Shown one piece after another: positions 30,694-31,522 of a stretch of DNA of 64,000 bases. The DNA lies in NCBI GenBank assembly GCA_024572335.1, contig GCA_024572335.1_3052.1; one strand, given 5' to 3'. The translations under genes were made by a program, and so were the position numbers. Origin of the DNA: a phage. The notes under the pieces are model-generated. The model saw only the letters and a list, made by a program, of their open reading frames with translations. It did no database searches and was not told the origin of the DNA. Numbering within the stretch: the first letter of the stretch is position 1; every line of letters starts with the position of its first letter.

Positions 30694-30770
30694 TGGTCGA
30701 GACAGAAGGATTCTAACCTTCAACCTACGGATTAGAAGTCCGTTGCTCTATACAATTGAGCTATGCCTCG
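30694..30770 (-). tRNA. tRNA-Arg (anticodon UCU)
   Basis: cloverleaf read by hand: acceptor CGAGGCA/TGTCTCG, anticodon arm ACGGA-CTTCTAA-TCCGT, T-loop TTAGAAT, encoded CCA. Confidence 0.8.
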
Positions 30771-30777
30771 TATTTTG

Positions 30778-30849
30778 CGGACGTGATAGGATTCGAACCT
30801 ATAACCAATCGCTTAACAGGCGATCGCTCTGCCATTGAGCTACACATCC
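30778..30849 (-). tRNA. tRNA-Asn (anticodon GUU)
   Basis: acceptor GGATGTG/CACGTCC, anticodon arm ATCGC-CTGTTAA-GCGAT, T-loop TTCGAAT; no encoded CCA. Confidence 0.75.
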
Positions 30850-30853
30850 AAAT

Positions 30854-30940
30854 TGGTGGGGAGTGGTGGAGTCGAACCACCCGAGTCGCAATGACAATGA
30901 ATTTACAGTCCACACCGCTACCTCTACGGGATAACTCCCC
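30854..30940 (-). tRNA. tRNA-Tyr (anticodon GUA), class II with long variable arm
   Basis: acceptor GGGGAGT/ACTCCCC, anticodon loop CTGTAAA (as in E. coli tRNA-Tyr), T-arm GGTGG-TTCGACT-CCACC, CCA; D-arm atypical. Confidence 0.6.
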
Positions 30941-30949
30941 AAATTAATT

Positions 30950-31024
30950 TGGTGGCCCTGGGTGGAATTGAACCACCATCTGGCGATTATGAGTCGCTTG
31001 CTTGAACCTTCCAGCTACAGGGCC
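30950..31024 (-). tRNA. tRNA-Ile (anticodon CAU, probably lysidine-modified, AUA-reading)
   Basis: acceptor GGCCCTG/CAGGGCC, anticodon stem-loop GCGACTCATAATCGC resembling E. coli ileX, CCA encoded. Confidence 0.75.
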
Positions 31025-31025
31025 T

Positions 31026-31101
31026 TGGTGCTGATTAACGGAATCGAACCGCCGACCTTCTCATTACAAGTGAGTTGCTCTACCTACTGAGCTAAATCAG
31101 C
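31026..31101 (-). tRNA. tRNA-Thr (anticodon UGU)
   Basis: acceptor GCTGATT/AATCAGC, anticodon loop CTTGTAA, T-loop TTCGATT, CCA. Confidence 0.8.
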
Positions 31102-31106
31102 AAAAC

Positions 31107-31196
31107 TGGCGGAGGCGATAGGATTTGAACCTATGAGTCGCCGGAGCGACTGCCGGTTTTCAAGACCGGTGCATTAAACCACTCTGCCACGCCTCC
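31107..31196 (-). tRNA. tRNA-Ser (anticodon UGA), long variable arm
   Basis: acceptor GGAGGCG/CGCCTCC, anticodon arm CCGGT-CTTGAAA-ACCGG, T-loop TTCAAAT, CCA. Confidence 0.8.
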
Positions 31197-31198
31197 AG

Positions 31199-31273
31199 TC
31201 TCCATACAAGGATTTGAACCTTGGACCTCCTGATCCCAAATCAGGCGCTCTACCAAACTGAGCTACACGGAGT
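31199..31273 (-). tRNA. tRNA-Pro (anticodon UGG)
   Basis: anticodon arm CCTGA-TTTGGGA-TCAGG, T-arm CAAGG-TTCAAAT-CCTTG; 2 nt from tRNA-Ser; no encoded CCA. Confidence 0.75.
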
Positions 31274-31282
31274 AAATTAAAT

Positions 31283-31356
31283 TGGAGCGGATAATGAGAA
31301 TCGAACTCACATCATCAGATTGGAAGTCTGAGGTAATGCCATTATACGATATCCGC
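31283..31356 (-). tRNA. tRNA-Gly (anticodon UCC)
   Basis: acceptor GCGGATA/TATCCGC, anticodon arm TCAGA-CTTCCAA-TCTGA, T-loop TTCGATT, CCA. Confidence 0.8.
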
Positions 31357-31361
31357 AAATT

Positions 31362-31448
31362 TGGTGCGAGAAGTGGGACTCGAACCCACAAGGAAATCAT
31401 TCCGCAGCATTTTAAGTGCTGTGCCTTTACCAATTTGACCATTCTCGC
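31362..31448 (-). tRNA. tRNA-Leu (anticodon UAA), long variable arm
   Basis: acceptor GCGAGAA/TTCTCGC, anticodon arm CAGCA-CTTAAAA-TGCTG, T-loop TTCGAGT, CCA. Confidence 0.8.
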
Positions 31449-31449
31449 G

Positions 31450-31522
31450 CTGGGAATAAAGGACTCGAACCTTTGCATCCTGGAATCAAAATCCAGTGCC
31501 TTACCAACTTGGCTAATTCCCA
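31450..31522 (-). tRNA. tRNA-Gln (anticodon UUG)
   Basis: acceptor TGGGAAT/ATTCCCA, anticodon arm CTGGA-TTTTGAT-TCCAG, T-loop TTCGAGT; 1 nt from tRNA-Leu. Confidence 0.8.

Follow-up and report, generated by a model that had tools for sequence, protein, structure and literature searches.

Why should a phage carry ten tRNA genes, and in particular genes for tRNA-Tyr and tRNA-Asn that T4 does without? We addressed this question for the tRNA cluster of a phage in GenBank assembly GCA_024572335.1 (contig GCA_024572335.1_3052.1), analysed as one stretch of 64,000 nucleotides (nt) that we refer to as the window. Across the whole window ARAGORN called exactly ten tRNA genes, all on the minus strand at positions 30694-31522, and no further tRNA genes elsewhere. 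In order of transcription these are tRNA-Gln(UUG) (31449..31522), the class II tRNA-Leu(UAA) (31362..31448), tRNA-Gly(UCC) (31283..31356), tRNA-Pro(UGG) (31198..31272), which does not encode its 3' CCA, the class II tRNA-Ser(UGA) (31107..31196), tRNA-Thr(UGU) (31026..31101), a tRNA with a CAU anticodon (30950..31024), the class II tRNA-Tyr(GUA) (30854..30940), which does encode its CCA, tRNA-Asn(GUU) (30777..30849) and tRNA-Arg(UCU) (30694..30770). These calls bear out a first-pass annotation, made from the sequence alone, which had listed ten genes with the same anticodons. Its spacers of 1-9 nt were close to those in the ARAGORN coordinates, which run 0, 5, 10, 1, 5, 1, 9, 4 and 6 nt and therefore span 0-10 nt, the difference hinging on where the 3' ends are drawn. 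At the curated gathering threshold of the Rfam tRNA model (RF00005, 29 bits), nine of the ten genes were also called, with scores between 59.3 and 74.1 bits (Gln 67.4, Leu 59.3, Gly 63.3, Pro 66.8, Ser 62.6, Thr 71.1, CAU 59.9, Asn 74.1 and Arg 71.1); the exception was tRNA-Tyr.

We conclude with high confidence that the cluster represents the tRNA module of the Tequatrovirus phages in its segB-less, T2-type form, and that it serves both codon supply and the evasion of tRNA-cutting nucleases. The cluster region matches Tequatrovirus phages of Escherichia coli, Shigella, Yersinia and Citrobacter hosts at 96-98% identity, and at least 80% of the 1.5 kilobase (kb) region is covered in 340 phage records, many of which annotate both tRNA-Tyr and tRNA-Asn in this position. 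Homologues of Trna.2 and Trna.3 lie directly upstream. Searches of the window for segB gave no significant match by blastn and nothing below E = 2 by tblastn. With trna.2-4 upstream, the block CAU-Tyr-Asn-Arg present and segB not found, the cluster is a member of the T2-type module. The ten-tRNA arrangement itself is already known and common, Tyr and Asn genes being known from T2, T6 and hundreds of T4 relatives. The novelty that the first-pass annotation had implied for it does not survive, as the T2L cluster was published in 2008 and the layout is annotated in hundreds of genomes.

Comparison with T4 defines what is shared and what is extra. The T4 cluster (Gln-Leu-Gly-Pro-Ser-Thr-Ile-segB-Arg-rnaD-rnaC) occupies the same genomic position, downstream of trna.2-4, and its eight anticodons all recur in the window. 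The first six genes are shared at 89-100% identity (Gln 89%, Gly 98.6%, Thr 94.7%, Leu and Pro 100%, Ser 100% over its 87-nt body). In T4, segB stands between Ile and Arg and there is neither Tyr nor Asn, whereas the window lacks segB and carries both. The T4 reference region thus agrees with the first-pass annotation that these two genes are additional, and T4 has been reported to lack a tRNA-Tyr gene (Chihara et al. 2026, Nat Commun 17:3468). The accompanying claim, that the first seven genes plus Arg are the T4 set, holds for the anticodons but not for the genes: the CAU and Arg genes share only 68% and 61% identity with T4 Ile and Arg, blastn found no significant match between them and these T4 genes, and they belong to different lineages.

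The closest counterpart is found in T2 (GenBank MH751506) and T2L, which also lack segB and share with the window the block of CAU (annotated Met), Tyr, Asn, Arg and an open reading frame (ORF) of 116 amino acids (aa). The T2 order is Gln-Leu-Gly-Pro-Ser-[ORF trna.1]-Met(CAU)-Tyr-Asn-Arg-[116-aa ORF]; trna.1 stands where the window has tRNA-Thr, leaving nine tRNAs in T2 and ten in the window. Identity between the two is 100% for CAU, 98.9% for Tyr, and 100% for the Asn body and for Ser, Pro and Leu, whereas T2 Arg is a different allele (80.5% identity) and T2 Asn encodes a CCA that the window Asn does not. The segB-less arrangement has been described for T2L, RB1 and RB3, with CAU-Tyr-Asn-Arg in T2L (Brok-Volchanskaya et al. 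2008, NAR 36:2094).

T6 differs from both, with the order Gln-Leu-Gly-Thr-Met(CAU)-Tyr-segB. It lacks Pro, Ser and Asn at this place, and its CAU gene is of the T4 type. Its 87-nt Tyr gene is 100% identical to that of the window, including a variable arm with the cut site, C48, of the defence system Septu. In T6, tandem amplification of Tyr is driven by segB, the gene that comes after it; without segB in the window this route is unavailable in cis. As side observations from these comparisons, the tRNA-Thr annotated in the T6 record (L004 648-722, minus strand; 89.5% identity to the window Thr) went uncalled by ARAGORN. Some close relatives, Yersinia phage ZN18 among them, have 11 genes, with tRNA-His(GUG) and about 115 extra base pairs (bp) between Asn and Arg (L003 1875-1950, minus strand; L007 5248-5323, plus strand). 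With Tyr, Asn and His, such a cluster has three of the four GUN-anticodon tRNAs.

This variation raises the question of whether homing endonucleases, rather than selection on Tyr and Asn, determine what the cluster contains, with segB or another mobile element overwriting the segment from CAU to Arg. T4, T6, T2 and the window each carry a different subset of tRNAs, and identity to T4 collapses to the 68% and 61% given above in the segment from CAU to Arg, next to 100% for Leu, Pro and Ser. In T2L, SegB cleaves preferentially within the tRNA-Asn gene, and in T4 x T2L crosses the T4 version takes the place of about 1250 bp that carry Met, Tyr, Asn and Arg (Brok-Volchanskaya et al. 2008, NAR 36:2094). 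These crosses suggest that T4 lost Tyr and Asn in connection with segB. The window Arg, furthermore, is a third allele type that is common to other phages. Such exchange would, however, account for turnover and not for maintenance: structural constraint acts strongly on the Tyr sequence, which occurs in 1,269 phage records, Asn is at least 99% conserved in 317 records, and functional data exist for Tyr (Chihara et al. 2026). We therefore consider it very unlikely that mosaic exchange is the main determinant of the cluster's content. It does bear on the fate of the T2-type module. The window Asn, of which all 73 nt are identical to T2 Asn, is homologous to the T2L gene in which SegB cuts preferentially; with this target and no segB, the phage falls among the recipients of SegB homing and should lose its CAU-Tyr-Asn-Arg block in co-infection with T4.

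We investigated whether the Tyr gene (anticodon 30904-30906, variable arm 30882-30896) encodes a real tRNA. It was not listed by RF00005 at the gathering threshold, and under relaxed thresholds its best match in the tRNA clan was tRNA-Sec, at 30.9 bits and under that family's threshold of 47. Homologues with 78-100% identity were identified in the 1,269 phage records, far outside the T-even group, with 561 of these records at 90% identity or more. They include rV5/FV3-like phages (96.6% identity), Certrevirus and Karamvirus (91%), Felix-O1-like phages (85%), Phapecoctavirus (84%), T5-like phages (about 82%) and Jiaodavirus (78%). We aligned 18 homologues and later 33 distinct sequences, covering at least ten named phage genera, with further relatives gathered by a DNA-pattern scan, which was far more productive than a route via the Trna.2 protein in viral contigs (7 loci). 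RNAalifold returned a full class II cloverleaf, in which 98.6% of cells pair across the 33 sequences and both partners change in 19 of the 24 pairs. No column shuffle out of 500 reached these values, and slid controls paired in 42-54% of cells.

Compensatory changes preserve all five helices (acceptor, D, anticodon, variable and T), and the anticodon loop CUGUAAA, the T-loop, A73 and the CCA are invariant across the family. The class II form and CUGUAAA loop noted in the first-pass annotation are thus plainly present. The sequence also carries A73, G1-C72, GUA and a long variable arm, the established elements by which bacterial (E. coli) tyrosyl-tRNA synthetase (TyrRS) identifies its substrate. 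The identical T6 tRNA has been detected by northern blot (Chihara et al. 2026, Nat Commun 17:3468). The T5 homologue, which has 85% identity to the window gene, an identical variable arm, and the same layout of the D-arm and of the extended connector described below, is an effective amber suppressor after an anticodon change, according to its GenBank record.

The alternative, that the gene is a pseudogene or a non-translating decoy that soaks up nucleases directed at tRNA-Tyr, is highly improbable. It could draw on the failure of the Rfam model and on the 6 of 20 homologues that ARAGORN misses. Folding of the single sequence by minimum free energy also gives no cloverleaf and is not significant (z = -1.1), an unremarkable and uninformative result. 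In addition, T6 tRNA-Tyr appeared relatively unstable in fragment sequencing and, when overexpressed, partly protected host tRNA-Tyr from Septu (Chihara et al. 2026). Against this stand the compensatory changes in five helices, the invariant loops and 3' end, and the suppressor activity of the T5 homologue. Rescue by the tRNA-Tyr of the T5-like phage SP15, moreover, requires an intact anticodon and stems, being lost in mutants of either, and its authors concluded a role in protein synthesis (Azam et al. 2024). On the covariation in all helices, the identity to an expressed T6 tRNA and the activity of the T5 homologue, we rejected the pseudogene or false-positive reading. The Tyr gene is a real tRNA gene, as indicated by the ARAGORN call, the covariation and the published function of an identical gene; by analogy with these relatives, we infer that the window copy is aminoacylated and used by the ribosome.

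The D-arm of this tRNA is nevertheless unusual. In the ARAGORN fold, a two-nt connector leads into a D-stem of U10.G26, C11-G25, C12xC24 and C13-G23. In the fold produced by RNAalifold, the register is shifted by 2 nt: U8, A9, U10 and C11 (30930-30933) are unpaired, and the stem (5' strand 30926-30929, 3' strand 30915-30918) consists of C12-G26, C13-G25, G14-C24 and U15.G23. The resulting D-loop, AGAGGUA, has A, GG and A where A14, G18-G19 and A21 are expected. With the shifted stem, 132 of 132 cells are paired across the 33 sequences, and compensatory double changes occur at three of the four pairs (C-G to U-A in four sequences; G-C to C-G and U.G to G-C in one sequence, L102). Under the ARAGORN register 61% of cells are paired, 32 of the 33 sequences have a C.C mismatch, and double changes are absent. 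Results for the 18-sequence set are alike, with canonical-register pairing of 61-69% across both sets. We accordingly rejected the ARAGORN register on pairing and covariation, and the atypical D-arm remarked on at first reading is real.

The connector after the acceptor stem is 4 nt long, or 5 nt in four aligned sequences. Within it, U8 and A9 never vary, and the next two or three bases do so freely (UC, UA, UU, GU, GA, GG, AUU, UUU), including by insertion or deletion. A diverged relative, L091, has a Felix-type acceptor stem and a D region, TA.GC.CAGG.GACGGAC.CCTG.A, in which none of the four pairs form in the canonical register and all four form in the shifted one. The pattern used to pick extra metagenomic members of the alignment specified the 5' half of the D-stem but left its 3' half free. 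In a crude control that sought the best register over all viral tRNA-Tyr candidates, 15 of 15 family members reached four of four pairs only with a connector of 3-5 nt, and many other viral tRNA-Tyr fitted the canonical 2-nt connector, 29 of them with four of four pairs, the control being noisy outside the family because of ties and longer stems. As a side observation, other distant viral tRNA-Tyr with the same T-loop (L091/L084, L092, L144, L147 and L052) fit a connector of 4-5 nt and fail the canonical register. Among phage tRNA-Tyr genes, the extended connector may have a wider distribution than this family.

Two connecting nucleotides, at positions 8 and 9, are the norm in tRNAs, and a review of non-canonical tRNAs does not mention the phage Tyr family (PMC7609411); the papers on Septu and on the retron are silent on the D-arm of phage tRNA-Tyr. 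Judged on pairing and covariation, the shifted D-stem with a conserved insertion of 2-3 nt after A9 is probably the true fold. The family would then combine invariant U8 and A9, two or three freely varying extra nucleotides, and an otherwise canonical four-pair D-stem with a D-loop of 7-8 nt. It would do so across unrelated enterobacterial phage groups, comprising T-even, rV5-like, Felix-O1-like, T5-like, Phapecoctavirus and the T4-like phages of Klebsiella, Enterobacter and Citrobacter. We found no description of such a conserved non-canonical core in the literature searched; we hold this reading as a whole to be unlikely, and the chance that the fold is both undescribed and functionally meaningful is lower than that of the fold itself.

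The structure has a practical consequence for annotation. The Tyr homologues score 33-39 bits with Rfam or are missed, in contrast to 50-74 bits for neighbouring tRNAs. Among 45 annotated records, taken as an even spread of the matches, the gene was labelled tRNA-Tyr in 23, tRNA-OTHER in two and tRNA-Val in three, and 17 had no tRNA feature at all, one of which lists a coding sequence for an HNH endonuclease in its place. The connector of 4-5 nt is likely to be the cause both of the Rfam miss and of the omitted or misnamed genes in GenBank. Surveys of phage tRNA content and of anti-defence tRNAs would consequently undercount tRNA-Tyr.

We additionally noted a side observation on the distribution of the Tyr gene. 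The Vequintavirus FV3 (L013 1422-2234), an unrelated myovirus, carries its 96.6% identical copy beside Arg, Ser, Thr, CAU and Pro genes. This suggests recent exchange of tRNA genes between phage families.

We considered what the additional tRNAs do for the phage. The first-pass annotation had proposed that extra tRNAs replace host tRNAs depleted by anticodon nucleases, and published work on related genes supports this. The Septu system EcB88 cuts host tRNA-Tyr; T6 tRNA-Tyr, overexpressed or tandemly amplified, rescues T6 from it, and deleting the tRNA-rich region of T6 raises sensitivity (Chihara et al. 2026, Nat Commun 17:3468). The cut was mapped to C48 in the variable arm, and T4, without tRNA-Tyr, cannot escape (Chihara et al. 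2026, Nat Commun 17:3468). The window gene keeps the UGUC^A site, with C48 at position 30893. Similarly, retron-Eco7 cuts host tRNA-Tyr, and T5 tRNA-Tyr restores infection (Azam et al. 2024). E. coli tRNA-Tyr expressed from a strong promoter also rescues (Azam et al. 2024), indicating that dosage matters. T5 tRNAs, rather than T-even alleles, are reported to resist cleavage (tRNA-Tyr in Chihara et al. 2026; tRNA-Lys in PMC12409363), whereas the T6-type Tyr is cleaved by Septu.

For tRNA-Asn, the relevant system is PARIS, whose nuclease AriB has E. coli tRNA-Asn(GUU) as a secondary target, cut at U36AAUC|C41 (PMC12409363). AriB cuts between positions 40 and 41, beside the motif U36-A-A-U39, and a change of U39 abolishes the cleavage of tRNA-Lys; the Lys, Thr and Asn variants of T5 together neutralise PARIS (PMC12409363). 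Positions 36-41 of the window Asn (30815 down to 30810; anticodon 30815-30817) read UAAGCG. The window thus has U-A-A-G39-C40-G41 where the host has U-A-A-U39-C40|C41, and T5 Asn shares G39. T5 belongs to a different phage family, in which tRNA genes are scattered among ORFs and not clustered as in the window, and its Asn is only 70% identical overall. The same positions in the window tRNA-Thr read UAAUGA. The G39 allele is suggestive of resistance to AriB, and an anti-defence role for both Tyr and Asn in this phage may be proposed by analogy with these systems.

The first-pass annotation had also suggested that the extra tRNAs compensate for codon usage, an idea our comparison of codon demand supports. 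Long, non-overlapping ORFs were picked mechanically from the window (68 ORFs, 17,323 codons) and from one 49 kb stretch of E. coli K-12 (51 ORFs, 14,041 codons). Tyr accounts for 4.50% of codons against 2.52% in the E. coli sample (x1.78) and Asn for 6.14% against 3.91% (x1.57), the two highest ratios among all 20 amino acids. Because the E. coli sample is of limited size and has many genes for ribosomal proteins, these ratios and those that follow are approximate. For the other eight tRNAs, the cognate A-ending codons show an enrichment of 1.6-4.5 times, with GGA, AGA, AUA, UCA, UUA and ACA at 2.5-4.5 times. Lys, Ile and Asp are also enriched, and the cluster has no Lys or Asp tRNA. His is depleted (x0.69), though close relatives add tRNA-His.

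These figures might suggest that supply explains everything, that is, that Tyr and Asn are kept purely for the demand of an AT-rich proteome and that any effect on defence is incidental. That the two most enriched amino acids are the two with extra tRNAs, that the remaining eight genes fit codon supply, and that simple dosage of E. coli tRNA-Tyr overcomes retron-Eco7 are all in keeping with such an account. It does not, however, explain why the cluster lacks tRNAs for Lys and Asp, and the tRNA-His of relatives is not accounted for by codon demand. Together with T4, which does well without Tyr and Asn, this tRNA-His argues against a pure demand model. At position 39 of the AriB motif, moreover, the Asn gene departs from the host sequence, as does that of T5, and the T6 copy of Tyr has a demonstrated role against Septu. 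We regard supply alone as possible but somewhat unlikely. The codon-demand and anti-defence ideas are both supported and are not mutually exclusive, as the double role that we favour for the T2-type module implies.

The CAU gene illustrates the supply side. ARAGORN and many records label it Met, and the first-pass reading as Ile fits better. A counterpart was found in 5,413 of 5,426 E. coli genomes; among the best matches listed, 12 taken as a spread over 5,430 records, every one carries the annotation tRNA-Ile, with identities of 76-87%. This places its closest host relatives with the ileX/ileY-type genes rather than with tRNA-Met. Its acceptor stem, GGCCCUG/CAGGGCC, contains C4-G69 and C5-G68, which are determinants for the lysidine synthetase TilS. 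AUA codons are 3.8 times enriched in the window ORFs over the E. coli sample, which fits the need for a CAU tRNA reading AUA. From these features, the gene is most likely a lysidine-type tRNA-Ile2 that reads AUA. The copy is 100% identical to the T2 gene, in contrast to 68% identity with T4 Ile.

The window Asn encodes only C74 of the CCA. As a side observation, a different tRNA with a GUU anticodon, 85-86 nt long and scoring 49-62 bits with Rfam, was identified in Moonvirus, Jiaodavirus, Karamvirus, Phapecoctavirus and Klebsiella phage Roth20 (L019). It has a long, class-II-like variable arm (GUCAGAAAUGAC) and the anticodon arm CGGACUGUUAAUCCG, and was found at L015 776-860, L019 1676-1760, L025 1864-1948, L026 775-859 and L016 695-780. 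tRNA-Asn is normally class I, so the amino-acid identity of this tRNA is ambiguous.

The Arg gene is a third allele by sequence, with 61% identity to T4 Arg and 80.5% to T2 Arg. At least 99% identical copies occur in 120 other phage records, and relatives at 88-96% identity in the T4-like phages of Salmonella and Klebsiella. Its D-loop, AAUUGUAUA, lacks the G18-G19 doublet, and its T-loop, UUAGAAU, has A56; C56 is near-universal in tRNAs. T2-type Arg alleles have both GG and C56. The G19-C56 elbow pair thus seems to have changed in a coupled way to U19-A56.

Beyond the tRNA genes, and on the same strand, the window order continues with the 116-aa ORF, homologues of rnaD and rnaC, and a terminator-like hairpin. 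The ORF (30325..30675, minus strand), which separates Arg from the stable-RNA genes where in T4 Arg abuts rnaD, has no Pfam match; it belongs to PHROG 3355 (E=3e-53), is of unknown function and has an equivalent in T2. The homologue of T4 rnaD (species 2 stable RNA; 30209..30325, minus strand) has 87% identity over 118 nt by blastn, and that of rnaC (species 1 stable RNA; 30064..30202, minus strand) has 97.8% over 139 nt. Neither matched an Rfam family in the scan of the window. The 3' two-thirds of the rnaC homologue are tRNA-like, and relaxed ARAGORN calls a tRNA with a four-base anticodon there; the rnaC homologue of locus L010 (5580-5673) is called tRNA-Stop(tta). We considered whether T4 rnaC and rnaD could be degenerate remnants of Tyr and Asn, and rejected this because the window has Tyr and Asn plus clear rnaD and rnaC homologues downstream.

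Just 3' of the rnaC homologue, at 29990..30013 (minus strand), a hairpin with a stem of 10 pairs, including 7 G-C pairs, and a T run behind it is likely to mark the end of the transcription unit; it is a consensus match, and the number of such sites in the window is not above shuffled controls. All five flanking ORFs searched fall in PHROG families of unknown function, and the four that were also searched against Pfam gave no match. Below-threshold Rfam matches to Plastid-ycf2, Plastid-psbl-rps4, sX4 and YrlA overlap the tRNA genes or lie antisense to them (30952-31024, 30696-30770 and 31028-31101, plus strand). We rejected the plastid untranslated-region, sX4 and YrlA matches as separate features, as they are look-alikes derived from the tRNAs.

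Taken together, and by analogy with T4, the ten functional tRNA genes, which lie head to tail, would be co-transcribed, and host RNase P and the enzymes that process 3' ends would release the individual tRNAs. The small ORF and the stable-RNA genes rnaD and rnaC come next. The eight genes with T4 anticodons would decode codons ending in A, which the phage uses often and E. coli rarely, with the CAU gene as an Ile2-type tRNA for AUA. Tyr and Asn would top up the pools on which an AT-rich phage proteome draws most relative to its host, and would keep translation going when nucleases cut host tRNA-Tyr (Septu, retron-Eco7) or tRNA-Asn (PARIS/AriB).

Several points weigh against this interpretation. 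A promoter scan of the window found five sigma-70-like sites against 6.4 expected from shuffles, no signal above shuffled expectation, so that co-transcription rests on analogy with T4. Expression and phenotype are likewise carried over from relatives. T6 tRNA-Tyr is itself cleaved by Septu at C48, a single copy protecting partially and full escape requiring amplification (Chihara et al. 2026); the segB that drives this amplification is not in the window, which speaks against a strong defence role in this phage. The resistance of Asn to AriB hinges on one motif position, and the demand ratios carry the approximation of their E. coli sample.

The roles of Tyr and Asn in codon supply and in escape from Septu, retron-Eco7 and PARIS are an active and published topic, and the structural reading of the phage tRNA-Tyr family is the one part that may be new. 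For annotation, this family represents a systematic blind spot of tRNA-finding tools. If the shifted fold is true, the extra nucleotides could be an adaptation that alters recognition by tRNA-Tyr nucleases or by quality control, with function at TyrRS and on the ribosome retained. If confirmed experimentally, the extended connector would be a small but real addition to the known functional non-canonical tRNAs.

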